DNA from: Parcubacteria group bacterium GW2011_GWA2_43_13
Lineage (GTDB): Bacteria; Patescibacteriota; Patescibacteriia; UBA9629; GWA2-43-13
Length of the DNA stretch: 64,000 nucleotides
Assembly: GCA_000999025.1 (NCBI GenBank)
Contig: LCFM01000005.1
Coordinates: 71,087 to 135,086 of the forward strand
Direction of reading: 5' to 3'
Position 1 is the first letter of the stretch, and every line of letters begins with the position of its first letter. Both the position numbers and the translations under genes were made by a program. The notes beneath the pieces were generated by a model. That model had not been told where the DNA came from, made no database searches, and saw only the letters and a program-made list of their open reading frames with translations. Shown piece by piece: positions 4,201 through 56,148 of the stretch.

Positions 4201-5008
4201 CGGTGTCGCAGGAAAGGATATCACTCAAGGGCTTCCGCGTGTTGAAGAAATATTTGAATGTCGAGCTATTCGAAAAGGGGCTCTGCTTTCCGAAGTGACA
4301 GGGACGGCAAAGGTGACTGAAAAAGACAAACAAAAGATTGTAACTGTTTCTCCTCAAGATAAGAGTGAGCCAATAGAATATGTAGTGCCGTCAGGTTTTT
4401 CCATTTTAGTGAAGGATGGAGAATTAGTGAACGTCGGTGATGCGCTCACTGAAGGCAGTCAGGATCTTCATGAGTTGTATCGTTTGCGAGGCCGTCGGGC
4501 AGTGGAAAAGTATGTTATCCGTGAAATTCAGCAAATATATTCTTCACAGGGCCAGGATTTAAACGATAAGCATCTTGAAATTATTATTCGTCAGCTTTTC
4601 TCCCGTGTTATTATTATGAATGAGGGGGGTACGCGTTTTTCACCGGGATCTGTTATTGATCGAACTGCTGTTGAAGAAGAAAATGTGCGCGTGAAAAAAC
4701 AAGGAGGCAAGGGCGCTACATGTCAGGAACTGTTGATGGGGATGACGAAAGCCGCGCTCGCCACATCATCGTTTTTATCAGCGGCATCGTTTCAAGAGAC
4801 AGCGCGCGTGCTTATTGATGCGGCTATTACCGGCAAAATTGATAACTTGAACGGGTTAAAAGAGAATGTTATTATCGGCAGGTTAATTCCTGCGGGAACC
4901 GGATATAAAAGCGGCCGGCTTGAGCGGGAAGTTTTGAAAGCGTCTGAAATAACGCGACAGCAAAAAGCGAATGAGAGAGCGGAATCAATGGCGCTGATAG
5001 AAGAATAA
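1220..5008 (+). CDS. rpoC: DNA-directed RNA polymerase beta' subunit
   Basis: The 1262-aa product has the zinc-binding [23 protein letters not shown] segment and the catalytic [12 protein letters not shown] motif, and sits in the canonical position after rpoB. Confidence 0.97.
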
Positions 5009-5038
5009 TATCGAATAGCATACTGTCTATTGTATTGT

Positions 5039-5064
5039 GGCCCCCGTAGTACGGGGGCTTTTGG
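5039..5064 (+). terminator. Rho-independent terminator after rpoC (GGCCCCCGTAGTACGGGGGC followed by TTTT)
   Basis: A GC-rich hairpin followed by a T-run lies immediately after the rpoC stop. Confidence 0.7.
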
Positions 5065-5123
5065 TACCGGAAAAACGATGGACTCTGGAATCATTATACG
5101 ATATACTACTTTCATATTAGTAT

Positions 5124-7298
5124 ATGTCGTCAGATAAAGGGAAAAAGAAATCAGATCAAAAAGAAGAGGATATTTCATGGCTTTCTCAAGAGGCGCGGGC
5201 CTCTATTTGGGCTGTGATACTTTTGGTGATTTCAGTTGTGTTTGCGTTGTCGTTATTGGATGCGGCCGGAACACTGGGAATATGGGTGAAAAGCGCGCTT
5301 GAGGGATTAGTTGGTTGGGCCGCGTGGGTCGTGCCGCTGTTGTTGATTCTTGTGGTGTATTTGGTGATTATTGGCAAGCAGGCGCATCGGCGCACATATC
5401 ACACATGGGGATTATTGCTGGTATTGTTTGCTATTGCCGGATTATTTCATTCAATTATTCCAATGGATCAGGCCTGGCCTGCGATTGATCAGGGCCGTGG
5501 AGGGGGGTATCTTGGGTTTGCTATGAGTTTCCCGTTTCGGCGGTTGATGGGGTCTTTTGCAAGCGCGCTTTTTTTATGTGCGTTGGGAGTGATTGGCGTC
5601 GTGTTGCTGTTTAATACTCCACTGACTTCACTACTGAAGCCGTGGGAGTTTTGGCGGCGATTGAAAAGGGTAAAGCCGCAGTCATCGCTTGGCGAAGGTG
5701 TCCAGTTGATTGATGATAAAAAGCATGGCGAAACAAAGCCATTTTTACAATCAACTCTTCCAACTGATAAAGGATTTTCCAAGCAAAAAATAGGAATGGT
5801 TGATGTGCCGAATCGCATTCGGCTTCCTAAAATTGATATACCATTAGATTTATTAGAGCGGGCGGAAATTCACCCTCAATCAGGTGATATCCGCAAGAAT
5901 TGTGAAATTATAAAAGGCACGCTTGAAACGTTCGGAATTCAGGTCGAGATGGCTGATGTTCATGTTGGGCCTACAGTAACCCAGTATACGCTCAAACCAG
6001 CCGAGGGAGTGAAATTATCTCAAATTACCGCATTGCAAAATGATTTGGCGCTGGCCCTTGCCGCGCTTTCTATTCGCGTTGAAGCGCCAATTCCCGGGAA
6101 AGCGCTGGTGGGCATAGAAATCCCCAATAAAAGCGTTGCTACCGTTCCATTGCGCAATGTACTTGAAAGCAGTGAGTTTGCGCGCAGAAAATCACCGCTT
6201 ACGATTACTATTGGCCAAGATGTTGCCGGAAATGCGTTTGTCGCCGATCTGACAAAAATGCCCCATTTATTGGTTGCCGGAGCAACAGGATCAGGGAAAT
6301 CCGTGTGCATCAATACCGCTTTGATCAGTTTGTTGTATCAGAATTCTCCTGAGGATTTACGTTTGATTCTTGTGGATCCCAAACGCGTTGAACTTACCAT
6401 GTATAATGGTATTCCTCATTTGTTGACTCCTGTGATTGTAGATGTTCAAAAAACAATCAATGCATTAAAGTGGACTGTCTCTGAAATGGAACGCAGATAC
6501 GAAGTATTGGCAGAGAAGGGCAAGCGGAATATTGAGAGCTTTAATCAAGCAGTTTCGTCTGAAGATTCATTGCCCTATATTATTGTTGTGATTGACGAAT
6601 TGGCAGATATTATGGCAGTCGCGGCGCGCGAGGTTGAAGCGATGATTATTCGGCTTGCGCAGATGGCTCGTGCTGTTGGTATTCACCTTGTACTCGCGAC
6701 GCAAAGGCCATCGGTTAATGTTATTACTGGCCTTATTAAGGCGAATATTACAACCCGCGTTGCATTTTCCGTTGCCTCTGGCGTTGATTCTCGTACGATT
6801 ATTGATTCGTCAGGAGCGGAAAAATTACTCGGCCGTGGAGATATGTTATTCATTTCTTCTGAATTGACAAAGCCAAAACGCGCTCAAGGCGCGTATGTTT
6901 CTGAAGAAGAGGTGAAGCGCGTGGTTGATTTTTTGAAACAAAAAGCTCAACCCCAGTATGTTGAAGCAGTGGTTCAAAAACATACCGTGAGTGGTGGGAA
7001 TGGAATGGTTGGCCTGGGAGATGATTATGATGATGTATTATACCAAGAAGCTCGTACTCTTGTGATTGAAACAGGCAAGGCATCGGCGTCACTCTTGCAA
7101 AGACGATTACGCGTAGGATATGCTCGAGCCGCGCGATTATTGGATTTATTAGAAGATCAAGGAGTGGTTGGGCCGCAAGAGGGTGCGCGTCCGCGCGAAG
7201 TTTTTGTGGCATCGCGCGCTTCTGAAGGATTTGACGTTCAGGATGGGCAGGATTTTGACACGCGCGATAAAGAGCGTATAGAAGATGATTATGAATGA
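5124..7298 (+). CDS. ftsK: DNA translocase FtsK/SpoIIIE
   Basis: The protein has N-terminal transmembrane segments, an FtsK motor domain with Walker A GATGSGKS, and a C-terminal gamma-like winged-helix region. Confidence 0.9.
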   Translation: MSSDKGKKKSDQKEEDISWLSQEARASIWAVILLVISVVFALSLLDAAGTLGIWVKSALEGLVGWAAWVVPLLLILVVYLVIIGKQAHRRTYHTWGLLLVLFAIAGLFHSIIPMDQAWPAIDQGRGGGYLGFAMSFPFRRLMGSFASALFLCALGVIGVVLLFNTPLTSLLKPWEFWRRLKRVKPQSSLGEGVQLIDDKKHGETKPFLQSTLPTDKGFSKQKIGMVDVPNRIRLPKIDIPLDLLERAEIHPQSGDIRKNCEIIKGTLETFGIQVEMADVHVGPTVTQYTLKPAEGVKLSQITALQNDLALALAALSIRVEAPIPGKALVGIEIPNKSVATVPLRNVLESSEFARRKSPLTITIGQDVAGNAFVADLTKMPHLLVAGATGSGKSVCINTALISLLYQNSPEDLRLILVDPKRVELTMYNGIPHLLTPVIVDVQKTINALKWTVSEMERRYEVLAEKGKRNIESFNQAVSSEDSLPYIIVVIDELADIMAVAAREVEAMIIRLAQMARAVGIHLVLATQRPSVNVITGLIKANITTRVAFSVASGVDSRTIIDSSGAEKLLGRGDMLFISSELTKPKRAQGAYVSEEEVKRVVDFLKQKAQPQYVEAVVQKHTVSGGNGMVGLGDDYDDVLYQEARTLVIETGKASASLLQRRLRVGYARAARLLDLLEDQGVVGPQEGARPREVFVASRASEGFDVQDGQDFDTRDKERIEDDYE

Positions 7299-13771: not shown

Positions 13772-14866
13772 TTATGCTCCATGGCGGAAATGCATAACAT
13801 CTCCATCGCAGACAGCATATTCTTTTCCTTCAACGCGAAGTTTTCCTGAATCTTTTGCGCCTTGTTCGCCATTGTATTCAATAAAGTCCTGATACGCGAT
13901 TACTTCCGCGCGGATAAAATATTTTTCAAAATCAGAATGGATTACTCCTGCGGCCTCTGGCGCTTGCGCGCCTTTTTTAATTGTCCATGCCCTGGTTTCT
14001 TTGGGGCCTGATGTAAAAAATGTTATGAGATCGAGGGTCTCGTATGCTTTTTTGATTAAACGATTCAATCCCGTATCATTGAGTCCCAATTCTTTTAGAT
14101 AGACACTGACTTCTTCTTGATCTAATTCTGAAAGTTCTGCCTCAAGTTTTGCGCAGATGGTAAGTCGTGTGTTGTAGAGACGCCCAAGGGGGGCGTCTTC
14201 GTCTGAGACGCCCAAGGGGGGCGTCTCTACAGGTTGTTCATCACTATTATACACTTCAATAATCGGTTTGAGAGTGAGGAGATTATATGGTTTTAAGAGT
14301 ATCTGTTTGTCGTCAGTGAATGGTTGCGATGAAATAGGAGTGCTATTGTTTAAAATGTGTTCAAGGGTTTGAAATAGTTCAAGCTCTTTGAGCGCGTCTT
14401 TATCTCCGGTTCGCGATTTTGCTTCAAGAGTATCAATACGTTTCAGTACAACAGCAAGGTCGGCCATTGCAAGTTCAGTGATGATGGTTTCGCGATCTGA
14501 TTCTGGATCCACTTTTCCTTCCACATGAATAATGTCGTCATTATGAAAATCACGCAATACATGGCATATTGCATCAACCCCTCTGATGTGAGAAAGAAAT
14601 TGATTTCCCAGACCCTCTCCTTTATGCGCGCCTTTGACAAGTCCGGCGATGTCTACAAATTCGATGGTTGTTGGAATGATTTGAGCCGAATGAGATATGT
14701 CTGAAAGTTTTTGAAGGCGATCATCCGGAACGGCAACAACGCCAACATTCGGGTCAATGGTGCAGAATGGAAAATTTTCCACAGCGACTTGTTTTTTTGT
14801 CAACGCGCGAAAAAGTGTTGATTTGCCAACATTGGGAAGTCCGACGATGCCAATTTGAAGAGACAT
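13772..14866 (-). CDS. ychF: Ribosome-binding ATPase YchF (Obg family), carrying an in-frame palindromic repeat insertion
   Basis: The N-terminus is MSLQIGIVGLPNVGKSTLF, followed by the G4/G5 motifs. A 57-nt hairpin repeat at 14174-14230 is translated in-frame as ...VETPPLGVSDEDAPLGRLYNTR... Confidence 0.9.
   Translation of the reverse strand: MSLQIGIVGLPNVGKSTLFRALTKKQVAVENFPFCTIDPNVGVVAVPDDRLQKLSDISHSAQIIPTTIEFVDIAGLVKGAHKGEGLGNQFLSHIRGVDAICHVLRDFHNDDIIHVEGKVDPESDRETIITELAMADLAVVLKRIDTLEAKSRTGDKDALKELELFQTLEHILNNSTPISSQPFTDDKQILLKPYNLLTLKPIIEVYNSDEQPVETPPLGVSDEDAPLGRLYNTRLTICAKLEAELSELDQEEVSVYLKELGLNDTGLNRLIKKAYETLDLITFFTSGPKETRAWTIKKGAQAPEAAGVIHSDFEKYFIRAEVIAYQDFIEYNGEQGAKDSGKLRVEGKEYAVCDGDVMHFRHGA
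14174..14230. repeat. Family A palindromic element (GTAGAGACG-N-CGTCTCTAC) with an internal tandem duplication, in-frame in ychF
   Basis: The sequence GTAGAGACGCCCAAGGGGGGCGTCTTCGTCTGAGACGCCCAAGGGGGGCGTCTCTAC is read directly. Confidence 0.9.
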
Positions 14867-19616: not shown

Positions 19617-19675
19617 GTACCCCCTCCTTTACAAGGAGGGGTGGCTCTCCGCAGGAGAGACGGGGTGGTTTTTTA
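19617..19675. repeat. Family B hairpin element (CCCCTCCTTTACAAGGAGGGG ... GGAGAGACGGGG)
   Basis: The sequence is read directly, intergenic after the GT2 gene. Confidence 0.7.
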
Positions 19676-20477: not shown

Positions 20478-20552
20478 CACACCCCTGTATCCCCTCTCAA
20501 GAGGGGATGTCGTCCGCACTCCCTCCTTGAGGAGGGGTTGGGGGAGGTGTTA
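20478..20552. repeat. Family B composite MITE-like element with terminal inverted repeats ACACCC...GGGAGGTGT and two internal hairpins (CCCCTCTCAAGAGGGG; CCCTCCTTGAGGAGGG)
   Basis: The sequence is read directly; it marks the left edge of the high-GC island. Confidence 0.85.
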
Positions 20553-20720
20553 TTGGGGGGATGCAAATGTGCAGGAATATACAATCGCATATTGGTAATG
20601 TGCCATTGTATATCTCTGCAGAACCGTGTTTGTAAAACGGAAAGCAGGGATTGTTTCATTGACAATTTCGTTTTTTTCGTAACAAGGCGCTTCGCGCGCC
20701 GTCACAAGGAGCAATTTCCC

Positions 20721-21440
20721 ATGATAAAGGGGATCCTTCTCGCTCTCGTGGCGCTCCTCGGAGCGCCGGTCTCGGGGTTCGCCGGCGATTACGCCGGATT
20801 CCTGTTCTCGACCGAGCAAACCCCGTACGACGAGCAATCGTTCGTGTCGGGTGTCTTTCTCGGTACGAAGCAGGAAAGTGGTTTCTCCGGTTCGCTCGCC
20901 GTCGGCGCGTTTCAACCTCTACAGGAGGTGACGCGCCAGAAGTCCGACATCGCGGTGATCCCGCGAGTCGGGTTCTCCTATGGCGCGTTCGCGACGTCGT
21001 TACGGATTTTCGCTTCGCCGAAGAACGCGTACCACGGTACGCTGGGCGGCGAACTCTCGATACCTACGGAATGGCCGATTGATGTCGTCATTGACGGTGG
21101 GTATACGTTCGGATGGGGATTGAACTCCCCTGACGGACGATACCGTCTCGATGGCTTGAGCGTCGGCACTGGTGTCGAGTTCGGCGGCGGGTCTGTACGC
21201 GCTAAAATCCTTGGCACATTCGAGGCATCCAACGCCTCAGTAATGTCCAAGGGCAAGTCGGCGGTTTCCACCGCTCGACACTGGCACGTCGGTCCACAGA
21301 CAATAATCGTGTTTCGACCCGAAGGTTCAAACTGGTGCATTCAGCCCTCGATTGGGGTTGGTGTCATCGGGAAGAACCTGAAGGGAGAGGAACTCGATCC
21401 GGAATTCTCGTTCGGTTTCCGGGTCTTCACCCGGCGGTAA
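20721..21440 (+). CDS. Secreted Gly-rich protein, putative outer-membrane beta-barrel-like (high-GC island gene 1)
   Basis: It has a signal peptide MIKGILLALVALLGAPVSGFAG, a repeated amphipathic beta-strand pattern, and a C-terminal FSFGFRVF. GC is about 62-65% against about 45% in the flanks, and the RBS AAGGAG precedes the ATG. Confidence 0.5.
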   Translation: MIKGILLALVALLGAPVSGFAGDYAGFLFSTEQTPYDEQSFVSGVFLGTKQESGFSGSLAVGAFQPLQEVTRQKSDIAVIPRVGFSYGAFATSLRIFASPKNAYHGTLGGELSIPTEWPIDVVIDGGYTFGWGLNSPDGRYRLDGLSVGTGVEFGGGSVRAKILGTFEASNASVMSKGKSAVSTARHWHVGPQTIIVFRPEGSNWCIQPSIGVGVIGKNLKGEELDPEFSFGFRVFTRR

Positions 21441-21452
21441 GGAGTCACGGCG

Positions 21453-22695
21453 ATGAGACGTTTCTCATATCTCGGATTGGCGCTCGTATTCGTCGTCGGG
21501 CTGGCCGGGTGCTGGCCCGACTCTGACATTGACAACACCGAAGTGCCGACCGGTCCGCTCACGCTCAAGGTAGACACCAAGAGCGTTGAGCAGATTGCGT
21601 CGCTCATGCAGAGTGGTGCGCTTGCGGCACCGCCTGCGCGGCCTACGAAAGTCAAGGCGACAACGCGTTGGTTTGACAACGCGAATGTTCGCCAATCGGC
21701 ACAATCAGAGGCGAGCATCGGCGAGCTGATTACAGTCGCTCGCCCCCTCGACCGTTCCTATATCGTCAATGTCGCCGACATGGACAACCGGTCACTGACC
21801 GGGATTGTTCGTATGGCGACTCGGGATGGGCTTCCGAAAGCCGTAATCCCGCAACGCGCTTTTCTTCCGATGATGGAAGGGTTGGTGGTCGCAGAGAAGG
21901 TGGACGGTTCGTTCGACTTCCCTACGGCGCCGATCCAACCAGTCGTTGGTACTGGCGTTGACGGGAAAATCTTCATCCTCGAGTTCGAGGTTGAGGTTCC
22001 TGTCGCGACGGTTACCGCCGGCGGAAACGCGGACACGTTGGTCGCGAGCGCGACCGTGTCCCACGCTCTCGGCGATTCTAGATGCGAAAATTCGGGTTCG
22101 GGTACTCGGCACACGCGACGACGCTGGCGTGATCACGGTGGCCACAGGGGAGTGGGTTACTCTCCCCAAAGTGGACGCTACGATCACTGTGTCTATGGCG
22201 TGGGCGAATGGGGTGATCGTCCCTACGCCTGTAACTCCTGTTTCCGGATTCCGCTGGGAGCTGATCCAAGGCGCCCTCGATCTGCTTTACGCGGCAGATG
22301 GGGGCGGAGGAACTCCCAATCCTCCTACTGGAGGTGCCACTATCGAGGACATCGGCGGAAAATGGCAGATTGCAGGGATCACTGGGGCCGGCAATCTGGG
22401 CAAGAACGTCGCGATGTCCGAGGTTTTGCAGGTTGAGGTGATGTGGAAGGCGGATCCGACCGCTAACCCAACCCTCATCCCTGCGACATTCGCAGTCGGA
22501 GTTGACGGGAAACTGTCAGCGACGACTGCCGATATCGTCCCGCGAGGAGGGGTCGGGAACTTTCGATTCTACCTCAAAGACGGATCGCAAGCGTGGTTGA
22601 ACCGGGATTCGGTAACGAAGATCGGTGCGATACGTTTCGCGAATGTCGGTGGGGTGGAAGGGTTCGCAACCCCCTTGACTAACTCTCACGAATGA
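21453..22695 (+). pseudogene. Lipoprotein (lipobox VGLAGC) disrupted by a +1 frameshift near 22075-22081 (high-GC island gene 2)
   Basis: Frame 0 reads ...ATVSHALGDS and then an Arg-rich nonsense tail. The protein-like continuation ...DAKIRVRVLGTRDDAGVITV... is in the +1 frame and runs to 22695. Confidence 0.6.
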
Positions 22696-23408
22696 AAGGG
22701 TGTGTCGTGAAAGTAAGGATTCTCGCGCTCATGTTCACGTTCGTCGTCGGGCTGGCCGGATGTTGGCCCGGAGCGGACACGCCGTCCGCCCCGCCGATTG
22801 ACGACGGCGGATCCGGCGGGGACAACAGCGACGGATCCGGTGGGGGAGGTGGCGTCATCGTTGGAGACAACGACGCCGCTGAGCTTGCCGGATTCGAAAA
22901 AACTTTCGGGACAGAAACCACGTCGGTGTTCGTGTCGTCATCCGACGGCATGGACACCAGGAGCTATGGCCAATGGCGGAAGGATTCCGCATTTGGTGCC
23001 CCCGCGGCATCTCGGGCTGAGATCGAATCCGTCATCGCGGCCGGTGTCTCTGTCGGGCTCCGGATTGCCGGACCCGACGGCAAGCAGACCGCGACGACCC
23101 CGGCAGGGATCGTTTCATGGTTCCCTGGTGACCGGATGGTCGTCAAGACCTCCGGAATCACCGGCGAGCCCATCGAGACGAAGTATTTGCGCGGGGGGCT
23201 CGAGATTGACCCCGCCACCCGAGTTGGGGAAGGAGCAAACTTTGTCGTCTACCAAAAGGGTAGCGGCCAAGTGCTGTACTGGCTCCTCCTCCACGGCGAT
23301 CCGGATAAACCGGTGCCGTACTTCCGCATCTTCGGCGCGGCGGATTGGATGATCTCCAACCGCAGTGTCGCGGGCAAGCTGGAGTACGGATTCTTTAAGC
23401 GAGAATGA
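22692..23408 (+). CDS. Lipoprotein, paralog of the previous gene (same FVVGLAGCWP signal/lipobox; Gly/Ser/Asp-rich linker) (high-GC island gene 3)
   Basis: The signal-peptide region is nearly identical to the upstream gene, and the GC is high. Confidence 0.6.
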   Translation: MKGCVVKVRILALMFTFVVGLAGCWPGADTPSAPPIDDGGSGGDNSDGSGGGGGVIVGDNDAAELAGFEKTFGTETTSVFVSSSDGMDTRSYGQWRKDSAFGAPAASRAEIESVIAAGVSVGLRIAGPDGKQTATTPAGIVSWFPGDRMVVKTSGITGEPIETKYLRGGLEIDPATRVGEGANFVVYQKGSGQVLYWLLLHGDPDKPVPYFRIFGAADWMISNRSVAGKLEYGFFKRE

Positions 23409-23429: not shown

Positions 23430-23490
23430 AACCCGTTCAACTGTGTGCTGAAAACGTTCAGTATTACAGTTGACGGGTTTATTTTTTTAT
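23430..23490 (+). terminator. Terminator after the island (AACCCGTTCAACTGT ... ACAGTTGACGGGTT followed by TTTATTTTTTT), with a nested CTGAA-AACG-TTCAG hairpin
   Basis: The stem-loop plus T-run is read directly. Confidence 0.65.
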
Positions 23491-23561
23491 TGTATAATAT
23501 TTTGTTTTACATGGCCTCCTCAATCCTTCCTTTCGAGAGGATGTAGGGGGTGTAGAGACGT

Positions 23562-23607
23562 GGCGGTGCCACGTCTTGTCGGAGACGTCCCATCGGGACG
23601 TCTCTAC
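23562..23607. repeat. Family A element (GTAGAGACGTGGCGGTGCCACGTCTTGTCGGAGACGTCCCATCGGGACGTCTCTAC), preceded by a family B fragment (23525-23561)
   Basis: The sequence is read directly; it marks the right edge of the island, upstream of the ligase-like gene. Confidence 0.85.
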
Positions 23608-23616
23608 ATACAAAAT

Positions 23617-25206
23617 ATGTCTTCATTTTTTAAAATATATTGGCAGTGGATTGCTATAGGGTTGGTCGCGTCTGGAGGAGTTGTATTGATAGGAGGGAAA
23701 ACAGCTCTTATTGTTTTTGTGTTGGTTGTTATTTCCGCCACACTGTTTATCAAACCAATGTGGCTGATGTATCTATTAGTGCCGTCGCTGTTTTTAGAAG
23801 CAGAGCAGTTTTCAATTTATTTTGGCAACTGGCGTGGGCGCGGGTATCATTTTTTGATTGGAGTGTTGGTTGTGAGGATGGTTTGGGAATTTATAAGCAA
23901 GAGAATAACACCTTCCGCCCCTTCGGGGCACCTTCCTCAAGGAAGGAGCCGTCGAATCCCCTCTCGAGAGGGGGTAGGGGGTGTGTCTGGGTTGGACAAG
24001 GCGTTGATTGCGTTTTTGTCAGTGCAGGCGGTTGCGATTTTGGTTTCGCCTGATAAAATGTTCAGCATAAAAATTTGGGTATTGCAGGTGTTACTTACCC
24101 TGCTGTTTTGGTGTGTTCGATATTTTGTCAAAACATCCACAGAATGGAAACGTTTGCTGAATATCTTTTTAATATCAAGCGTTGTTGAGGCGTTAATCGG
24201 GTTTTGGCAAGTGTTTGCGTTTTATCTTCAAAAAACAACTGGCATAGTTGTGCGCTGGGGAGAGGTGTTTCACGCGCAGATTTTGCAATTTGGTAGGCCG
24301 TACGGCACATTTGTTGAAGCGGACTGGTATGGCGCGTTTATGGCAATTCCATTGATGATGAGTGTTGTTTTGATGGCAGGCGCGCAGTCGAAAAAAACGC
24401 GTGCAGTGTATGGGGTATTAGGTATGGTTTTTGGTATTGCAGTAATCATCTCCGGTGTGCGTGCTGCATGGATCGCGGTGATTGTTGCGAGTGTAGTTGG
24501 TGTGTTTGTGTTGCGGGGCACGAATGGGGCACGAACCCGCCGAATCGGTGGGCGAATACCTCACCCCCCCCCTCTCCTTGTAAAGGAGAGGGGGACGACG
24601 ACACCTCCCTCCCTCCCTCCTCAAGGAGGGAAGATGTCGCATGTATTATACGGAGAGTATAAGCATTTGGTGGGGTTAGGCAGTGTGTGCGCTTTGGTTA
24701 TTGTGGTTCTACTCGCAATAGCATCGCCTACATGGGTTGGGCAGATCGGCGAACGATTTATTAGTATATTTAACCCTTCTACATGGGCGCATGAGCCGCG
24801 GGTCGCGACAACTCAAAAGGCGTTTGAATTGATTGCGCAATCGCCGATTATTGGTCATGGTCCGGGTAGTTATAAAATTTTAGGGATTGTGCCTGATGTT
24901 GATTCATCGCAGTATGATTATTATGGCGTTTATCCGTATTTGACGAATTATTTTTTAACGGTGTTGCATGATTCAGGTATTATCGGTTTTGCTGTGTTTT
25001 TGTGGTTGTTGTGGGAAGGGGTGAAGTTTAGGGCAAGATCTTATAAAGGAGAGGGGGCGGCGGTTGTGATGGGGGTGGTGGTGCTGATGATTGCATATTT
25101 GATTACAACCGGGTTTTGGTTGGGAATGACATGGTTTTTGTTTGCTTTATTATGCACAAATAGCTCACGAACCCGCCGAATCGGCGGGCGAATGGCTCAC
25201 GAATGA
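23617..25206 (+). CDS. O-antigen ligase/polymerase-like (Wzy_C-type) polytopic membrane protein with three in-frame repeat insertions
   Basis: It has multiple transmembrane segments. The repeats are translated in-frame as ...PSAPSGHLPQGRSRRIPSREGVGGVSG..., ...RGTNGARTRRIGGRIPHPPPLLVKERGTTTPPSLPPQGGK... and a C-terminal ...SRTRRIGGRMAHE. Confidence 0.6.
   Translation: MSSFFKIYWQWIAIGLVASGGVVLIGGKTALIVFVLVVISATLFIKPMWLMYLLVPSLFLEAEQFSIYFGNWRGRGYHFLIGVLVVRMVWEFISKRITPSAPSGHLPQGRSRRIPSREGVGGVSGLDKALIAFLSVQAVAILVSPDKMFSIKIWVLQVLLTLLFWCVRYFVKTSTEWKRLLNIFLISSVVEALIGFWQVFAFYLQKTTGIVVRWGEVFHAQILQFGRPYGTFVEADWYGAFMAIPLMMSVVLMAGAQSKKTRAVYGVLGMVFGIAVIISGVRAAWIAVIVASVVGVFVLRGTNGARTRRIGGRIPHPPPLLVKERGTTTPPSLPPQGGKMSHVLYGEYKHLVGLGSVCALVIVVLLAIASPTWVGQIGERFISIFNPSTWAHEPRVATTQKAFELIAQSPIIGHGPGSYKILGIVPDVDSSQYDYYGVYPYLTNYFLTVLHDSGIIGFAVFLWLLWEGVKFRARSYKGEGAAVVMGVVVLMIAYLITTGFWLGMTWFLFALLCTNSSRTRRIGGRMAHE
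23908..23984. repeat. Family B composite element (ACACCTTCC...CCTTCCTCAAGGAAGG...CCCCTCTCGAGAGGGGG...GGGGGTGTG), in-frame in the ligase-like gene
   Basis: Sequence read directly. Confidence 0.85.
24524..24640. repeat. Compound insertion: family C (CACGAACCCGCCGAATCGGTGGGCGAAT) plus family B (CCTCTCCTTGTAAAGGAGAGG; CCCTCCTCAAGGAGGG), in-frame
   Basis: The sequence is read directly; a second family C copy lies at 25163-25202. Confidence 0.85.
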
Positions 25207-27725: not shown

Positions 27726-27755
27726 ATAGAGAGACGCCCCAGGGGGGCGTCTCTA
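27726..27755. repeat. Family A element (TAGAGAGACGCCCCAGGGGGGCGTCTCTAC) between convergent GT4 and folD
   Basis: The sequence is read directly and may act as a bidirectional terminator. Confidence 0.85.
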
Positions 27756-28658
27756 CGGTTTTGTGATATTGAGACAATTATTCATAGTATTTTTAAGGAG
27801 AAGTGCTACTGTAACCGGACCGACACCGCCAGGTACTGGAGTGATCGCTCCTGCGTGCTTTTTTAGTGATTCAATATCAGCATCTCCTTTAATTGCCGTA
27901 GTTCCGTTATGTTCAATTCTACTAATGCCAACATCAATAATAATGGCATCTTTTTTTGTATATTCTTTTGTGAGAATATGAGGTTTTCCAAGAGCGATGA
28001 TAAGAATATCGTACTGCACACATTTTTTATTCAGCTCTGTAAAATGGTCTGCTTTAATGTTTTGGCGCGAGAGGAGGGTGGCAAGGGGAATAAACAGAAT
28101 ATCTGATTTGCACATAATTGCGGCGGATAACGGCACATCCTTACGCCTCTGGAGAGGGGATACGTCTCCCTTTCCTTTATAAGGAGAGTCCGCGAGCTGG
28201 CGGAGGGGTGAGGTGTTAAGCACATTTTGTAAACATTCCACCACACTCATCACGGTAACTGGTTGCGGGAAGGAAGGGTCTCCTAAGTGTTTGATATTTT
28301 CCGGATGAAATCCGTCTGCATCTTTATCCGGACGAATGCGTTGAATAAGTGTATCAGGATTAAGATGCCCTGGAAGTGGGAGTTGAACAATAATGCCGTG
28401 AATATCAGAGTCATTATTGAGAAAATCAATGCATTCTATGATATCATCTTGGCTATCAGTTGCTTTGAATCGGTACAGATGCGGGGTAATGCCTGCTTTA
28501 TCTGCTGTGTGAATTTTTCTTTTTACATATATCTCTGATGAGGGATCATTGCCAATCAAAATAATCGCAAGTCCGGGAGTCACATTGCGTTCGACAATAG
28601 TGCGCCTGATATCGTGCAAAATATCAGACGCGATTTTTTTACCGTTGATGATGTACAT
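27753..28658 (-). CDS. folD: Bifunctional methylene-THF dehydrogenase/cyclohydrolase with an in-frame repeat insertion
   Basis: It has the FolD N-terminus (ASDILHDIRRTI...GLAIILIGNDPSSEIYVKRK). The repeat at 28148-28218 is translated as ...[26 protein letters not shown]... Confidence 0.9.
   Translation of the reverse strand: MYIINGKKIASDILHDIRRTIVERNVTPGLAIILIGNDPSSEIYVKRKIHTADKAGITPHLYRFKATDSQDDIIECIDFLNNDSDIHGIIVQLPLPGHLNPDTLIQRIRPDKDADGFHPENIKHLGDPSFPQPVTVMSVVECLQNVLNTSPLRQLADSPYKGKGDVSPLQRRKDVPLSAAIMCKSDILFIPLATLLSRQNIKADHFTELNKKCVQYDILIIALGKPHILTKEYTKKDAIIIDVGISRIEHNGTTAIKGDADIESLKKHAGAITPVPGGVGPVTVALLLKNTMNNCLNITKP
28148..28218. repeat. Family B/D hybrid element (CTCCCTTTCCTTTATAAGGAGAG + TCCGCGAGCTGGCGGA)
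   Basis: Sequence read directly. Confidence 0.8.
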
Positions 28659-28768
28659 AAAATGTAAAAATCAAAAAGTAAAAAGCAACATAACAATGCA
28701 AAATGTGAAAATACAAAGTATGCGTACTCTATTTACATTTTGATTTTTACACTTTCATTTCTGATTTT

Positions 28769-30058
28769 TTACAGTTCCTGATAGATTGGAAACCCTTGTG
28801 TGAGTTCTACTACTTTTGTTTTTATTTTCTCCTTCAAAGATGTGTTATGAATATCATGGAGAACGCCTGCAATGAGATTTGCGATAATTTCCATCTCTTC
28901 CTCTTTCATGCCTTGGGATGTGAGCGCTGGGGTGCCAAGACGGATGCCTGACGGATTAAATGGTTTTCTCGTATCAAATGGGATCATATTAAAGTTGGTG
29001 TAGATGCCACATTCAGCGAGCGCGTTTGCGCCGTCTTTCCCACCAATGCCGAGTGATGTACAGTCAATGAGCATGAGATGATTATCTGTCCCGCCGGACA
29101 CAAGCCGCAACCCTTGATGCATAAGTGTTTGTGCGAGCGTTTGAGCATTTTTAACAATCTGATGTTGGTATTCTTGAAATTCCGGTTTTTCTGCTTCGGC
29201 AAATGCCACTGCTTTTGCCGCGATGATATGTTCCAATGGGCCGCCTTGTAAGCCAGGAAACACAGTTGCATCAATAAGTTGAGCAAGAGTTTTTTCACTA
29301 TCAGGGTGGTAGTGTGTTTTTAAGCGATCTTCGATTCTTGATAGAATAATTGCGCTTCGCGGACCTCGAAGTGTTTTGGTGGTTGTTGTCATGACAATAT
29401 CATGAGATGAGACAGGATTGGGGTGATCGCCTGCAAGGCAGAGTCCGACAATATGCGAAATATCAGCCATGGCATACGCATTAATTTCCTTGGCAATATT
29501 TGCGAATGTTTCAAAATCAATGATACGCGGATAAGCAGTTGCGCCTGATAAAATCATTTTAGGTTTTTCTTTCAATGCCAATTGTCGCACTTCATCCATA
29601 TCAATCCGCTCGTTTTCTTGGCTCACTCCATAAGAGATAAATCGGTATGTTTTCCCTGAAAAATTAACAGGATTGCCATGCGTAAGATGGCCGCCATGCG
29701 CAAGATTCATGCCCATAATAGTATCACCTGGCTCAAGCACTGCGCTGTAACATGCCATATTTGCTCCGGATCCGGAATGGGGCTGTACATTGACATGTTC
29801 GGCATTGAATAATTTTTTTGCTCGGTCTATGGCGAGTTGTTCAATTGCATCAATATATTCATTGCCAGTGTAGTATCGTTTGCCTGGGTACCCTTCGGCG
29901 TATTTATTCGTGAGTACTGTTCCTGTGGCTTCCAGCACTGCTTGTGATGCAAAGTTTTCTGAAGGAATCATAACCAGGCCCTCGCGCTGGCGTTTGAGTT
30001 CTTTGTCTAATAGAGTGGCAACTTCTGGATCCTGTTGTCTAATGTGAGGGTATAACAT
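28769..30058 (-). CDS. glyA: Serine hydroxymethyltransferase
   Basis: It has the SHMT N-terminus (DPEVATLLDKELKRQREGLVMIPSENF) and the PLP-lysine region. Confidence 0.95.
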   Translation of the reverse strand: MLYPHIRQQDPEVATLLDKELKRQREGLVMIPSENFASQAVLEATGTVLTNKYAEGYPGKRYYTGNEYIDAIEQLAIDRAKKLFNAEHVNVQPHSGSGANMACYSAVLEPGDTIMGMNLAHGGHLTHGNPVNFSGKTYRFISYGVSQENERIDMDEVRQLALKEKPKMILSGATAYPRIIDFETFANIAKEINAYAMADISHIVGLCLAGDHPNPVSSHDIVMTTTTKTLRGPRSAIILSRIEDRLKTHYHPDSEKTLAQLIDATVFPGLQGGPLEHIIAAKAVAFAEAEKPEFQEYQHQIVKNAQTLAQTLMHQGLRLVSGGTDNHLMLIDCTSLGIGGKDGANALAECGIYTNFNMIPFDTRKPFNPSGIRLGTPALTSQGMKEEEMEIIANLIAGVLHDIHNTSLKEKIKTKVVELTQGFPIYQEL

Positions 30059-30187
30059 AAAATTAAAGATGAAAAACAAAAAGTAAAAATGATGTATGTT
30101 GCCAAATGTCAAGTATCAAATTTCAGTTTTCAAATTATGGTACTTGGCGGAAATATTTGAAAACTGGCAACTGAAAATTGATATTTG

Positions 30188-31897
30188 TTATGAAGTTATA
30201 TGTTTAATCATATATATTTTTTCTAATTCATATCCTAATTTTTTATAGTATTCTCGTGTTCCAATGCCGGAAATGACAGCCATTTTTTTGTAGCCATGAT
30301 CTCGTGCAATGCTTTCTGCTTTTTGGATGAGTTGTTTGCCCAAGCCAGTATGCTGGGAAGTGTACACCTCTTTGCCGTTCAACGGGGTTAGTTGACCATA
30401 ACTATGCACTTCTCGTATGATAGCACATCCTTTAAGTTCTGAAATAAACGGATGGGTGATGTTATCTGGTAGGCGAAGGCGGAGAAATGCGTGGAGGATA
30501 CGGCTTTCGCCCCCCCTCCTGCCCGAGGAGGGGGTAGGGGGTGGTGGGAGGATATTTATTTTTTCATACCTCACCCTACCCTCTCCTATTTTAGGAGAGG
30601 GTGACGACGACGTCTCAAACGATAAAAAGTATTCTTTCCCGCCGGTTGTGTCAATCGGTTCAATGAAACATTCAGCGTTACTTGAATCAATAGATTGATT
30701 TCTTCCCAACTCCTCTCTGCATCGTATACATTTGCACAGCAATCCTTTTTTTTGCATGTGCGCTTGAATATGCTCGCGCAGATTTGAAATTTTTGAACCG
30801 GCAATAATACTGGTCGCCGGAATATCACGGATGAGTCGGGCAATACGGACGTAGGGTGGGATAATGGTATGTTTGACATGCGCAAGAAGGGTTATCAATT
30901 CATCGTCTGTGTATGGTTTCCATATACCATCGCGCCACATTTTTTCCATAATGGGCGTGAAAGAGGGGAGTACTGTGGGGTATATTTTCATTTCATCTGG
31001 TTTAAAATCCGGATGCTGGAAAAGTTCGTTGTACATCTCGGTATCTTTTTGGAGATTTGACCCTGGAAGGTTTGGCATGGTATGGTAATTGATTTTAAAG
31101 CCAGCGTCTTTGAGCCAACGCGTTGCATCACGAACCTGATCCCGAGTTTGGTCACGTTTAATAAGGGTGAGAACATCATCATGCGTTGATTGTACGCCTA
31201 ATTGCACGCGGGTCGCGCCAAGGGCGCGCATCCGTTTTATTTCTGTTTTTGTAATATGATCGGGCCGGGTCTCAAGAGTAAGTCCAACACATCGGTGTTG
31301 CGCTGTTTGGTTGATGTCATGCGTTTCTTTTAGTAGTTGATTATGGGATGAGCGGTATGGTGTACAGTGCGTAGTATCATAATGGAAAATAAAATCATTC
31401 ATTGCCTGAAAACAACGTTTAATAAACCATGTTTGATACCGGCGTGGGTAAAATGACCATGTCCCACCAAGTACAATAAGTTCGATTTTTTCCGGCCGAT
31501 GCCCATTTTCATAAAATGAGTGCAAACGGATGACAATTTGTTTATAGGGGTCAAATTGTTGTTTAAGCGCGCGTGCCGCGGCTGGTTCATTAGAGAGGTA
31601 GCTTTTGGGCATGCCACGCTCTGTAGGGCAGTACACGCACCTGCCGGGGCAAGGGAAGGGCTTGGTAAGCACAGTGACGGGTGCGACTCCTGAAATAGTT
31701 CTGATAGTGCGGCGTTTTAACATGTGCAAAAAAAGCGGGTCTGGCGTAACTTCTCCTTTTTTGATACGTTCATGGTAGTCCTTCAGTAGTGCCCGATTGG
31801 GTGGGATAGGGATATGTAAAGTACGCGCCCATTTGCGTTTTGCCGCATGGAGATCGTTTTTTGTATGGATTGTTTCGGAGAGAAGGTGGATAAGCAT
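30188..31897 (-). CDS. Elp3-homolog: radical-SAM plus GNAT acetyltransferase (tRNA carboxymethyluridine synthase-like), with an in-frame repeat insertion
   Basis: It has a radical-SAM CxxxCxxC (CPGRCVYCPTE) and a C-terminal GNAT fold. The repeat block at 30509-30620 is translated as ...SSSPSPKIGEGRVRYEKINILPPPPTPSSGRRGGESR... Confidence 0.8.
   Translation of the reverse strand: MLIHLLSETIHTKNDLHAAKRKWARTLHIPIPPNRALLKDYHERIKKGEVTPDPLFLHMLKRRTIRTISGVAPVTVLTKPFPCPGRCVYCPTERGMPKSYLSNEPAAARALKQQFDPYKQIVIRLHSFYENGHRPEKIELIVLGGTWSFYPRRYQTWFIKRCFQAMNDFIFHYDTTHCTPYRSSHNQLLKETHDINQTAQHRCVGLTLETRPDHITKTEIKRMRALGATRVQLGVQSTHDDVLTLIKRDQTRDQVRDATRWLKDAGFKINYHTMPNLPGSNLQKDTEMYNELFQHPDFKPDEMKIYPTVLPSFTPIMEKMWRDGIWKPYTDDELITLLAHVKHTIIPPYVRIARLIRDIPATSIIAGSKISNLREHIQAHMQKKGLLCKCIRCREELGRNQSIDSSNAECFIEPIDTTGGKEYFLSFETSSSPSPKIGEGRVRYEKINILPPPPTPSSGRRGGESRILHAFLRLRLPDNITHPFISELKGCAIIREVHSYGQLTPLNGKEVYTSQHTGLGKQLIQKAESIARDHGYKKMAVISGIGTREYYKKLGYELEKIYMIKHITS
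30509..30620. repeat. Double family B element (CCCCCTCCTGCCCGAGGAGGGGG ... CCCTCTCCTATTTTAGGAGAGGG)
   Basis: Sequence read directly. Confidence 0.85.
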
Positions 31898-31902
31898 AGG
31901 GC

Positions 31903-32040
31903 AATCCTAATCTACTAATACATCCTAATCTGCTAATACGAGTGGGATGTCTCGTCTGTAAAGATTGGGGTAAATATTGGGGTAAATATTGTATCTATAG
32001 CGTGTTATTTGTAGATTCGGATGAATTCGTATATTAGGAT
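31903..32040. repeat. Family E intergenic palindromic element (GCAATCCTAATCTACTAAT... / ...TGTAGATTCGGATG...ATTAGGATTG) in the divergent Elp3/Trm9-like promoter region
   Basis: The arms are read directly from the sequence. Confidence 0.75.
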
Positions 32041-32046
32041 TGATTT

Positions 32047-32829
32047 ATGTCAGTAGTAGAAATATATAACCAAATCGCTGCTCAATTTTCTAAAACCCGC
32101 AATAGAAGTTGGGTTGATTTTGATCTGTTTAAAAAAGTTATTCAGAGGCAAGTGGCAATTGTTAAACATCAATTGTCAGTGTTGGATGTTGGGTGTGGGA
32201 ATGGAAGGTTGTATTCGTTTTTTGTAGAGACGGGATTAACCCCGTCTCTACACTATAGAGGTATTGACGCAAGTGTAGGTATGATTGAGCAAGCGAAGAA
32301 GTGGTATCCGGAGTGTGATTTTCGCGTTGCTGATATGCGGGAAGTGCCATGTGATGATAACAGTTTTGATATAGTTTTTGCGATTGCGTCTTTTAACCAC
32401 ATGTTGACCAAGGAAGACCAAGAAAAAGCATTATCAGAAATATTTCGCGTACTAAAGCCGTGCGGGTATGTGTGCATGACAAACTGGAATTTATGGCGAT
32501 TGACATTAAAAGAAAAATCGTGGTGGTATTATGTGTTTTGTAGAGACGTGTCCCTGGCGCGTCTCATTCGGCGAGGTAAAGATGATGATTGTTTACAGAG
32601 AGACGCCGCAGGGGGTCGTCTCTGCGATCATTCCATGAGAGTTGTCTTGACCCGCTGGAACAACCATGAACTCCCATATTACGCGTTTACTTTACGAGAA
32701 TTAAAGCGCATGGTCAAGCAGGCTGGGTTGAGTGTAGAAACGGCATTGTATAGCAAAAACGGACACAAAGCGCATTGGTGGAATGGAAAAAATATCATAC
32801 TGATTGCGCGCAAAAAGCACTTGACATGA
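32047..32829 (+). CDS. Trm9/ALKBH8-like class I SAM methyltransferase with two in-frame repeat insertions
   Basis: The N-terminal motif IYNQIAAQFSKTRNRSW plus LDVGCGNGR is typical of Trm9-type methyltransferases. The repeats at 32224-32251 and 32539-32627 are translated in-frame. Confidence 0.65.
   Translation: MSVVEIYNQIAAQFSKTRNRSWVDFDLFKKVIQRQVAIVKHQLSVLDVGCGNGRLYSFFVETGLTPSLHYRGIDASVGMIEQAKKWYPECDFRVADMREVPCDDNSFDIVFAIASFNHMLTKEDQEKALSEIFRVLKPCGYVCMTNWNLWRLTLKEKSWWYYVFCRDVSLARLIRRGKDDDCLQRDAAGGRLCDHSMRVVLTRWNNHELPYYAFTLRELKRMVKQAGLSVETALYSKNGHKAHWWNGKNIILIARKKHLT
32224..32251. repeat. Family A element (GTAGAGACGGGATTAACCCCGTCTCTAC)
   Basis: It is a perfect palindrome inside the methyltransferase CDS. 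Confidence 0.9.
32539..32627. repeat. Two adjacent family A elements (GTAGAGACGTGTCCCTGGCGCGTCTC ... CAGAGAGACGCCGCAGGGGGTCGTCTCTG)
   Basis: The sequence is read directly inside the methyltransferase CDS. Confidence 0.85.
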
Positions 32830-34156: not shown

Positions 34157-34197
34157 CAACCCCCTCTCGTATTCGTTTACGAGAGGGTTGCTTTATT
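34157..34197 (+). terminator. Terminator (CAACCCCCTCTCGTA-ttcgt-TACGAGAGGGTTG followed by CTTTATT)
   Basis: The hairpin is read directly, after the DAHPS gene. Confidence 0.6.
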
Positions 34198-35636: not shown

Positions 35637-35720
35637 AACCTCATCCTACCCTCTCCTTGTAAAGGAGAGGGAGATGACGACTCCCCCTCTCTGATAGCTT
35701 CCGCCAAAGGCGGATATGCC
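35637..35720. repeat. Family B element (CCTACCCTCTCCTTGTAAAGGAGAGGGAG ... TTCCGCCAAAGGCGGATA)
   Basis: The sequence is read directly, between convergent genes. Confidence 0.85.
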
Positions 35721-41297: not shown

Positions 41298-42408
41298 CGC
41301 TGGTTCATATGATAGTATCCACCTAAGGGTTGTTCACCCGTATGAAAGGCAGATACTCTGGAAGCCATATGACTATCTATGGCTCAATCCTCCCAGGCGC
41401 GATTTCCATTGCCCGTTGGGCAAACAAAATCCAGCCTCTCACAGCACAAGCTAAACATACATTAAAGGTACTCGACTGGCACCGCACCCACGGCAACAAT
41501 ATCTCTTTAACCGCGCGTCATTTCTGCCTTACCAGAAAGACGGTTGCCTCCTGGCAGTATAAATTCAGTTGCTATGGTCCAATCGGGCTCAACCAACAAT
41601 CACGAAAACCTAAACACCTCCGACAACCCACTACCTCGAAACAGATAACATCAGAGGCAGTAACCCTCAAAAAACAATATCCAGCTTGGTCTAAATACAA
41701 AATTCAGAAACTCATGGAACACAAAGGTGTTAAAACTTCAGCCAGCACCGTTGGTAGAATCTTTAAGCGTAAAGGATTGATTAACAAAAAAGTGTCTGCT
41801 AAACGAAGGAAAGCCGCTATTCGTCCAAAAGCAAGATTTCCGCGAGGATTCAGGGTTTCCAACCCAGGAGATATGGTTCAAATTGATACGAAACAGGTTA
41901 ATCTTATCGCAGGCAGAAAGCTTTACCAGTTCACTGCCATTGATGTCTTAACCAAGCAGAGAGTGTTACGATACTATCCCTCGCTCTCCTCAAAAAATGG
42001 CTCTCTGTTTTTACAGGAATGCATAGAAACCTTCCCTTTTACCATCAGGGCGGTACAGACGGATAACGGATCAGAGTTCCTTAAATCCTTCCATGCCACG
42101 TGTCTTGAACGAACTATCCCTCATTACTTCATCTATCCTCGCACCCCTAAACAAAATGCATATGTGGAAAATTCCCACGGCTCGGACGAGAAAGAATTCT
42201 ACCTACAAGGCATTGTCTGTTCTAATCTCCTCGTTATGCAAACACGACTGAAACAATGGCAGAATACATGGAATGAAATCAGACCCCATGCCGCACTCAA
42301 CTACCTCACCCCCAAAGAATATTTTATGAAGTGGCAACATGGTAGATTGCCTACAAAAGACACCATAACTTTACAAACCTAACTGGATACTATGTATCTG
42401 AACCTGGA
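41298..42408 (+). mobile_element. IS481-family insertion sequence (single transposase ORF; imperfect terminal inverted repeats of about 20 bp, GGTTCATATGATAGTATCC / GGATACTATGTATCTGAACC)
   Basis: The IRs are read at 41302-41320 and 42385-42404, and the element is inserted between secG and pcrA. Confidence 0.7.
41330..42382 (+). CDS. IS481-family transposase (N-terminal HTH + DDE integrase core)
   Basis: It has an HTH region and an rve core (DMVQIDTK...FTAIDVLTK...QTDNGSEF) in a single ORF. Confidence 0.85.
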   Translation: MFTRMKGRYSGSHMTIYGSILPGAISIARWANKIQPLTAQAKHTLKVLDWHRTHGNNISLTARHFCLTRKTVASWQYKFSCYGPIGLNQQSRKPKHLRQPTTSKQITSEAVTLKKQYPAWSKYKIQKLMEHKGVKTSASTVGRIFKRKGLINKKVSAKRRKAAIRPKARFPRGFRVSNPGDMVQIDTKQVNLIAGRKLYQFTAIDVLTKQRVLRYYPSLSSKNGSLFLQECIETFPFTIRAVQTDNGSEFLKSFHATCLERTIPHYFIYPRTPKQNAYVENSHGSDEKEFYLQGIVCSNLLVMQTRLKQWQNTWNEIRPHAALNYLTPKEYFMKWQHGRLPTKDTITLQT

Positions 42409-56109: not shown

Positions 56110-56148
56110 GGAGAGACGCATCGTTGATGCGTCTCTCCTTTTTTTTGG
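56110..56148 (+). terminator. Terminator GGAGAGACGCATC-gttg-GATGCGTCTCTCC followed by TTTTTTTT (the stem contains the GAGACG/CGTCTC core of family A)
   Basis: The hairpin is read directly. Confidence 0.8.

Follow-up and report, generated by a model that had tools for sequence, protein, structure and literature searches.

A divergent Elp3 and Trm9-like methyltransferase gene pair conserved in Patescibacteria, a predicted Elongator-type module for tRNA wobble-uridine modification

We have analysed a pair of divergently transcribed genes in a 64-kb stretch of DNA (the window, part of contig LCFM01000005.1) from a groundwater metagenome-assembled genome, whose host, an ultra-small bacterium, appears in public records as Candidatus Jacksonbacteria or Parcubacteria group bacterium GW2011_GWA2_43_13. 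The minus-strand gene (30188..31897, 569 amino acids, ATG start) encodes an Elp3 homologue, and the plus-strand gene (32047..32829, 260 amino acids, ATG start) encodes a class I S-adenosylmethionine (SAM)-dependent methyltransferase (MT) that is Trm9-like; both are open reading frame (ORF) calls. The two lie head-to-head on either side of an intergenic spacer of 149 bp (31898..32046, no strand), which is presumed to hold the promoters of both. Such a divergent arrangement had been put forward in the original prediction, made on this DNA alone, and its coordinates for the two ORFs agree exactly with the ORF list. An exact-sequence look-up showed that the two proteins have been deposited as KKS93959.1 (Elp3, labelled 'hypothetical protein') and KKS93960.1 (MT, labelled 'Methyltransferase type 11').

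A conserved head-to-head gene pair

Scanning GTDB, with one genome per species, for the MT family gave at least 430 relatives, and we have counted synteny in the best 80 of these loci, using tblastn with the window Elp3 to locate Elp3 near MT. Elp3 is found within 10 kb of MT in 69 of the 80 loci and is head-to-head with it in 68. In 64 loci the two genes directly adjoin each other, namely in 63 head-to-head pairs with a gap below 400 bp (median about 57 bp) and in one tandem arrangement with the genes 50 bp apart (L022). No Elp3 was found within 10 kb in the other 11 loci, of which three are truncated contigs that extend less than 1 kb beyond MT on its upstream side. A separate contig look-up with a different MT homologue again revealed an Elp3/MT pair, the genes being 14 bp apart. 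Clustering of the neighbouring ORFs gave no third conserved neighbour, every other gene being present in at most 16 of the 80 loci; serine hydroxymethyltransferase (SHMT, 14/80), phosphomannomutase (13/80) and FolD (8/80) were each considered as a third module gene and rejected as too rarely present. Because adjacency is conserved while the other neighbours vary, this synteny is the decisive evidence in our analysis, and it is strong evidence that Elp3 and MT work together.

The 80 best loci carry Patescibacteria-type labels or come from unclassified bacteria. The named lineages comprise Magasanikbacteria, Uhrbacteria, Falkowbacteria, Kuenenbacteria, Gracilibacteria, Peregrinibacteria/Peribacteria, Kerfeldbacteria, Lloydbacteria, Portnoybacteria, Komeilibacteria, Buchananbacteria, Paceibacterota and Ca. 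Microsyncoccus. The MT family itself is large, since some 1,576 representatives (50% identity) reach E ≤ 1e-30 in a 1.8-billion-protein library, and those of its numerous homologues that are named come from Patescibacteria.

Some contigs with the pair (L030, DAOPTN010000030.1, and L007, L020, L023, L056 and L057) are labelled 'Candidatus Pacearchaeota archaeon' (DPANN) or 'uncultured Gammaproteobacteria'; either these are misassigned bins, or the pair is present in, or has been transferred to, organisms outside Patescibacteria. The pair is also head-to-head in Ca. Microsyncoccus archaeolyticus PMX.50 (L060, BTXY01000007.1; Elp3 at 4195-5616 on the minus strand, MT at 5749-6150 on the plus strand). 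This lineage is named for a cultured organism, which could serve for direct tRNA nucleoside analysis.

Within the window spacer, a promoter scan of the plus strand returned no match and that of the minus strand a single weak sigma-70-like one (9/12; 32015-31988), a result that neither favours nor rules out a shared promoter. The spacer also contains two tandem repeats, one with an 18-bp unit, ATCCTAATCTACTAATAC, present twice (31904-31939), and one with a 12-bp unit, GTAAATATTGGG, present 2.8 times (31958-31991), which could be candidate operator or promoter elements. The shortness of the shared spacer leads us to infer that Elp3 and MT are probably co-regulated through it.

Elp3 and the Trm9-like methyltransferase

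The minus-strand protein scores 515.5 bits on the NCBIfam ELP3 model TIGR01211 (cutoff 350) and contains the Pfam domains Radical_SAM, Radical_SAM_C and Acetyltransf_1, the last of these (GNAT) at 23.1 bits against a cutoff of 20.7. It aligns through its radical-SAM and KAT portions with the solved Elp3 proteins of Dehalococcoides mccartyi (DmcElp3, 5L7J) and Methanocaldococcus infernus (MinElp3, 6IAZ) at E values of about 1e-111, with DmcElp3 as the top-scoring solved structure (E 2e-111). The radical-SAM [4Fe-4S] motif CPGRCVYCP (residues 83-91, with C83, C87 and C90; 31625..31651, minus strand) aligns with CPGKCIYCP of DmcElp3, the three cysteines of the Zn linker (C388, C390 and C393) are all kept, and the KAT (GNAT) domain (residues 466-567; 30197..30502, minus strand) aligns with DmcElp3 residues 355-458 (E 8e-17). 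This domain carries E496, H498, the acetyl-CoA motif G518/G520 and Y550. Residues K137, K268, E496, H498 and Y550 correspond to K77, K193, E386, H388 and Y441 of DmcElp3, and K304 is the equivalent of the human acetyl-relay lysine K316.

The residues expected to hold the tRNA are also in place. Seven arginines (R151, R242, R361, R364, R367, R384 and R402) have been listed as contacting the anticodon stem-loop in the cryo-EM study of human ELP3 (PMC11096365), and all seven are arginines in the window Elp3 (R124, R230, R351, R354, R357, R374 and R392). In the human sequence used for this mapping, the published residue was verified at each numbered position. In addition, the window Elp3 is extended at its N-terminus by about 62 residues of basic character, with 14 lysines or arginines among the first 66; the N-terminus of archaeal Elp3 is likewise basic and binds tRNA, and DmcElp3 has no extended basic N-terminus. 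As judged from these features, the minus-strand gene is a bona fide and complete Elp3, and it is predicted to form cm5U34, the carboxymethyl derivative of the wobble uridine (U34), on tRNA.

The identity of MT is less apparent from single-sequence scans. Its best Pfam match is the generic Methyltransf_11 (91 bits); Ubie_methyltran (PF01209) is also matched at 44 bits, above its cutoff of 20.1, in a stretch that overlaps the stronger Methyltransf_11 match. A single-sequence search of the PDB is led by phosphoethanolamine N-methyltransferases, with Trm9 in fifteenth place (E 2e-6), and the public labels of the family are 'UbiE', 'Methyltransferase type 11' and 'class I SAM-dependent methyltransferase'. 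All these matches and labels would fit a generic UbiE/BioC/type-11 methyltransferase of small molecules or proteins, whose position beside Elp3 would then be incidental. They are, however, uninformative: a model specific for Trm9 does not exist in Pfam, and annotated fungal Trm9 proteins bear the same generic Pfam labels, which therefore cannot discriminate between the two. The more specific NCBIfam models speak against such an assignment, since MT scores only 52 and 50 bits on the UbiE models (cutoffs 216 and 158) and 47 bits on BioC (cutoff 185), with UbiE, MenG and BioC all far under their cutoffs.

We have therefore compared MT as a family, using a profile built from 78 sequences. Against the whole PDB, the best match of this profile is Yarrowia Trm9 (5CM2; 93 bits, E 1.8e-25), in an alignment that spans nearly the entire crystallised construct; the next generic methyltransferase reaches 85 bits, which is a small margin, and UbiE-like, BioC-like and CmoM entries fall below Trm9. 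A profile-profile comparison (hhalign) with 32 annotated fungal Trm9 proteins gave a full-length alignment with a probability of 100% (E 1.2e-39, 197 columns). In the reciprocal direction, a fungal Trm9 hidden Markov model (HMM) was searched against all ORFs of the window and the 80 related loci (about 1.3 Mb); the MT family member was matched in every one of the 81 (46-112 bits), and no more than three further ORFs gave a score, each of 23.6 bits or lower. Two side candidates were set aside on the way: a CmoM-like identity for MT was rejected, with 45.5 bits for CmoM against 93 for Trm9 and Elp3 as the conserved partner, and PDB entry 6F5Z, taken up as a Haloferax Trm9, turned out to be Hvo_0019-Trm112.

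The residues of MT agree with the profile results. Its Trm9-type N-terminal motif, IYNQIAAQFSKTRNRSW (residues 6-22; 32062..32112, plus strand), contains Y7, F14, S15, R18 and W22, corresponding to Y18, F25, S26, R29 and W33 of Saccharomyces cerevisiae Trm9 (ScTrm9), and each of the five is invariant in the family (78/78). The SAM-binding motif I, LDVGCGNGR (residues 46-54; 32182..32208, plus strand), includes D47, the equivalent of ScTrm9 D72. Yeast mutagenesis has defined eight essential Trm9 residues and a role for R29 (PMC4678810), and MT retains six of the eight: R29 as R18 (78 of the 78 family members), D72 as D47 (76/78), H116 as H118 (78/78), W145 as W147 (77/78), W168 as W204 (72/78) and Y243 as Y211 (72/78). 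By these comparisons, MT is Trm9-like, with Trm9 as its closest characterised relative, and it is predicted to methylate cm5U34 to mcm5U34, the methyl ester of the same side chain. Separately, some MT homologues (P0063, P0092, P0106 and P0114) are 349-388 amino acids long with an additional SET-domain match (PF00856), and in them a lysine methyltransferase domain may have been fused to MT.

The identities proposed in the original prediction are thus supported for both proteins. Pfam, TIGR01211 and the structure alignments bear out the radical-SAM CxxxCxxC plus C-terminal GNAT architecture proposed for Elp3, the forward and reciprocal profile tests together with the invariant N-terminal motif support the Trm9/ALKBH8-type assignment proposed for MT, and the three motifs quoted there (CPGRCVYCP, IYNQIAAQFSKTRNRSW and LDVGCGNGR) are all present. 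Two findings had been named that would speak against it. One was an Elp3 that had lost its tRNA-binding basic patch; this is not the case, because the seven arginines and the N-terminal extension rich in lysine and arginine are present. The other was a grouping of MT with UbiE or BioC, and it is Trm9 that emerges as the top PDB match.

Palindromic insertions and the surrounding window

Both genes of the pair carry in-frame repeat insertions, as had also been noticed at the outset: two hairpins lie in Elp3 and three in MT. The Elp3 insertion amounts to about 35 residues (431-465; 30503..30607, minus strand), which fall in a gap of both DmcElp3 and MinElp3, and it is built of two GC-rich palindromes (30512-30534 and 30578-30602) with a predicted RNA fold of −51.7 kcal/mol (z = −4.4). 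A related assembly has an Elp3 (P0242/P0244, 550 amino acids) that is 87% identical and is without 19 of the inserted residues (57 bp; about residues 444-462, window 30509-30568), so at least one palindromic element must have arrived recently. From the alignment, close relatives thus differ by the insertion or deletion of one palindromic element, as a polymorphism.

In MT, the first palindrome, GAGACGGGATTAACCCCGTCTC (32227..32248, plus strand), adds about four residues near positions 62-69 that are absent in homologues, and its fold energy is −22.1 kcal/mol (z = −7.0). The 30-bp elements at 32227 and 60561 (60561-60582) are near-identical and are found inside two unrelated genes. The second MT insertion, of about 28 residues (168-195; 32548..32631, plus strand), is absent in a 47%-identical Jacksonbacteria homologue (P0005) and holds two GAGACG...CGTCTC hairpins (32543-32565 and 32600-32622); in the AlphaFold2 (AF2) model, residues 180-193 have a predicted local distance difference test score (pLDDT) below 50. 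All palindromes within Elp3 and MT are in-frame, and the segments that they occupy are loops or are predicted to be disordered.

These elements belong to two hairpin families that are dispersed over the window. The pattern GAGACG-N(3-14)-CGTCTC occurs in eight exact-arm copies against 0.01 expected by chance, at 14205-14227, 23556-23604, 27731-27753, 32227-32248, 32543-32565, 32600-32622, 56113-56135 and 60561-60582, three of them being those in the MT gene. They are either intergenic or in-frame within at least four different ORFs, and they resemble the in-frame palindromic elements of Rickettsia. The second family, CCC(C)TCTCC-loop-GGAGAGGG, is found at 19621-19641, 24568-24594, 30512-30534, 30578-30602, 34162-34187 and 35649-35671; its exact form CCTCTCC-N-GGAGAGG has three copies in the window against 0 expected, one of them in Elp3. 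Some members of this family are intergenic and follow genes in a terminator-like manner, and others are within ORF 23470..25206 and Elp3, where they encode motifs such as SPSP..GEGR.

The other genes of the window are ordinary housekeeping genes, including those for RpoB/C, FtsK, RecA, EF-P, FolD, SHMT, TrpRS, RNase J, UvrABCD, GroEL and MutL. SHMT (GlyA) and FolD are directly downstream of Elp3 (27753-30112). Their counts near the pair in related loci, given above, make a link of the module with one-carbon metabolism weak, and residual synteny alone may account for their position. The family models match FolD (27753-28658) in two stretches and leave residues ~145-185 unmatched, which may represent another in-frame insertion. 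Further away, a GC-rich island at about 20500-23400 (GC 0.54-0.56, against about 0.43 elsewhere in the window) has three ORFs (20538..21440, 21453..22436 and 22692..23408) with no Pfam match at E ≤ 1e-8, and may be of foreign origin or encode surface proteins specific to the lineage. ORF 41330-42382, which adjoins the UvrD helicase gene and has integrase core domains (rve, rve_3), is probably the transposase of an insertion sequence.

Predicted pathway and its meaning for Patescibacteria

Taken together, the residues, profiles and synteny described above make it likely that the Elp3/MT pair is a two-gene, Elongator-type module for the modification of tRNA wobble uridines. In the first step, the stand-alone Elp3, with its radical-SAM [4Fe-4S] centre and acetyl-CoA-binding KAT domain, would place a carboxymethyl group on C5 of U34 to give cm5U34, as expected from the full conservation of its catalytic, cofactor and tRNA-binding residues. 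In the second step, MT would use SAM to esterify the carboxyl group of cm5U34 with a methyl group, giving mcm5U34; this step is predicted because of the Trm9 homology of MT, its kept active-site residues and its conserved adjacency to Elp3. The product could also be mcm5s2U34, should a thiolase act on the same tRNA.

The closest known counterpart in terms of chemistry is the eukaryotic pathway of Elongator and Trm9-Trm112, in which the same two enzyme families act in the same order as is predicted here. Eukaryotic Elp3 has the radical-SAM plus KAT architecture in common with the window Elp3, in which its cofactor, acetyl-relay and anticodon-loop-binding residues are conserved, and eukaryotic Trm9 shares with MT the N-terminal Y..IA..FS.TR...W pattern and motif I, while its H116, W145, W168 and Y243 all have equivalents there. 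There are also clear differences. The window Elp3 is a stand-alone enzyme, for which Elp1, Elp2 and Elp4-6 are not expected, and MT differs from eukaryotic Trm9 in its leucine at the R241 position, in an extra C-terminal hairpin and in that no Trm112 was detected near the pair, as considered below. The conserved divergent pair is a feature of Patescibacteria, eukaryotic genes not being so arranged.

Archaea offer a second comparison. Their Elp3, like that of the window, is a stand-alone protein extended by a basic N-terminus; Sulfolobus solfataricus has its Elp3 and Trm9 genes in a cluster, and in Haloferax volcanii Trm9 makes mcm5U, a demonstrated product. In contrast to the archaeal system, the host here is a bacterium, and Trm9 is present in only a subset of archaea whereas the Elp3/MT pair is conserved over many Patescibacteria lineages. 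Archaeal Trm9 needs Trm112 in vivo, and no such partner is seen near the Patescibacteria pair.

Among bacteria, DmcElp3 (5L7J, 5L7L and 6IA6) is also a stand-alone Elp3 and has its Fe-S, Zn and acetyl-CoA residues in common with the window protein, which in comparison adds the basic N-terminus (residues 1-62) and, where the KAT domain starts, the repeat-derived insertion of about 35 residues. The literature that we examined describes no Trm9 partner for the Dehalococcoides Elp3. The MnmE/MnmG (plus MnmC) pathway, which leads to (c)mnm5U34, targets the same C5 of the wobble uridine in tRNAs reading NNA/NNG codons and so has an analogous physiological role, but its enzymes are unrelated to Elp3 and MT: a GTPase and an FAD protein use methylene-tetrahydrofolate and glycine to build a different side chain. 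CmoM (E. coli, PDB 8JOZ) is a bacterial class I methyltransferase that likewise methyl-esterifies the carboxyl group of a U34 side chain, and its weak similarity to the MT family includes the N-terminal region (profile positions 10-158). However, CmoM requires cmo5U made by CmoA/CmoB, whereas the conserved partner of MT is Elp3.

Several points weigh against the predicted pathway. The equivalent of yeast R241 is L209 in MT, and the family has leucine there in 53 members, arginine in 24 and isoleucine in one (n = 78); the R241A mutant of ScTrm9 retains about 1% of its activity. The counterpart of N271, the other essential yeast residue, is ambiguous: MAFFT and hhalign both pair it with the non-conserved H243, and an invariant asparagine, N249 (78/78), starts the equivalent last β-strand after an extra C-terminal hairpin of about 8-10 residues that Trm9 does not have. 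Trm112 is required by eukaryotic Trm9 as well as archaeal Trm9, and neither the window nor the 10 kb around the pair in the 80 loci yielded an ORF resembling Trm112/YcaR; this is a weak test, for which tblastn, phmmer (with YcaR of E. coli as query) and a scan by regular expression were used. The single small match in that search was rejected as it lies within UvrA. Nor is Trm9 set apart by structure, for when the AF2 model of MT (pLDDT 89) was run through Foldseek against the PDB, Trm9 ranked sixth among near-equivalent class I methyltransferases, albeit with the best target TM-score (0.76), and several uncharacterised methyltransferases ranked higher; going by the modelled fold, such a comparison is unable to discriminate within the class I superfamily. 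Furthermore, DmcElp3, the sole biochemically characterised bacterial Elp3, has very weak activity in vitro (PMC7663514), the modification chemistry in Patescibacteria is itself a prediction from sequence, and so is the functioning of MT with three hairpin insertions and of Elp3 with two.

The leucine at the R241 position in two-thirds of the family, the extra hairpin and the failure to detect a Trm112 near the pair all lend some colour to a different outcome, in which Elp3 makes cm5U34 but MT acts on another atom or substrate of the same pathway, so that the end product would not be mcm5U. Conceivable examples are 2′-O or base methylation of the same tRNAs and formation of some other xcm5U derivative, or Elp3 itself might be the substrate that is methylated, and the cm5U chemistry of H. 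volcanii is already more complex than that of yeast. Nevertheless, the residues that position the carboxylate and the uracil in Trm9 (R29, H116, W145, W168, Y243 and Y18) are near-invariant in the MT family, Trm9 is its best PDB match, and methyl-esterification of a carboxyl group is the simplest reaction to expect of such an active site. We consider this outcome unlikely.

The palindromes raise the separate question of whether the pair is decaying in this particular genome, one or both proteins having been inactivated by the insertions while the family remains functional elsewhere. Five hairpin elements within two genes, an inserted MT segment that is predicted to be disordered, and a score of only 62 bits for the window MT on the Trm9 HMM (against a median of 89 for its relatives) would be consistent with decay. 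On the other hand, all the insertions are in-frame and without stop codons, and they are confined to loops, which in Elp3 means the beginning of the KAT domain and in MT a variable region before W204; fungal Trm9 proteins tolerate insertions in the neighbouring variable stretch, right after the tryptophan equivalent to W204. The catalytic residues are all intact, the core of MT is modelled with confidence by AF2, and the identical MT protein has been recorded from 17 contigs, all of which makes decay an improbable explanation.

That MT is a generic methyltransferase placed beside Elp3 by chance we regard as very improbable indeed, since the head-to-head pair recurs in species from many lineages of the candidate phyla radiation (CPR) among remaining neighbours that vary, which is a strong argument, and since every family member keeps the N-terminal motif that is specific to Trm9.

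Elongator-type modification has not been expected in these organisms. A 2020 review placed bacterial Elp3 in one clade only, Dehalococcoides, and found no evidence of xcm5U in bacteria (PMC7663514), and a 2017 review of Trm112 described bacterial genes resembling Trm112-dependent methyltransferases, including Trm9, as undetectable (PMC5372719). A 2026 paper reports Elp3 in 'numerous bacteria', and the NCBI pipeline already labels some of the proteins studied here as Elp3. Our search of the full-text literature for Elp3 or Trm9 together with CPR or Patescibacteria gave no description of the pair, although its coverage was incomplete and a prior description is possible; the sole co-mention that it returned concerns Thorarchaeia. 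What is suggested to be new here is therefore that bacteria have a Trm9-like family and that it is conserved as a pair with Elp3, mcm5U-type modification being otherwise treated as archaeal and eukaryotic. Contrary to what the reviews would lead one to expect, a large bacterial family of Trm9-like proteins stands in public records as 'UbiE' or 'type 11 methyltransferase', and hundreds of proteins would have to be re-annotated if the assignment is true.

A broader proposal, which we offer tentatively and which is more doubtful than the two-gene module itself, is that xcm5U34-dependent decoding of NNA/NNG codons by a stand-alone Elp3 and a Trm112-independent bacterial Trm9 clade is a lineage-wide trait of Patescibacteria that replaces the canonical MnmE/MnmG pathway instead of adding to it. 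Neither the MnmE nor the MnmG gene is present in the 64-kb window, and our literature searches on an absence of MnmE/MnmG gave no result. If the proposal is true, an archaeal/eukaryotic translation trait would be fixed over a major share of bacterial diversity, as an ancestral character or through early acquisition from archaea.

The conserved pairing suggests that Patescibacteria modify their tRNA wobble uridines by the archaeal/eukaryotic route. Should this be true, it would be the first mcm5U pathway in bacteria, and it would make a possibly Trm112-independent Trm9 available for structural and enzymological study. It would also add a character of the translation apparatus to the debate on how the CPR is related to other bacteria and to archaea.

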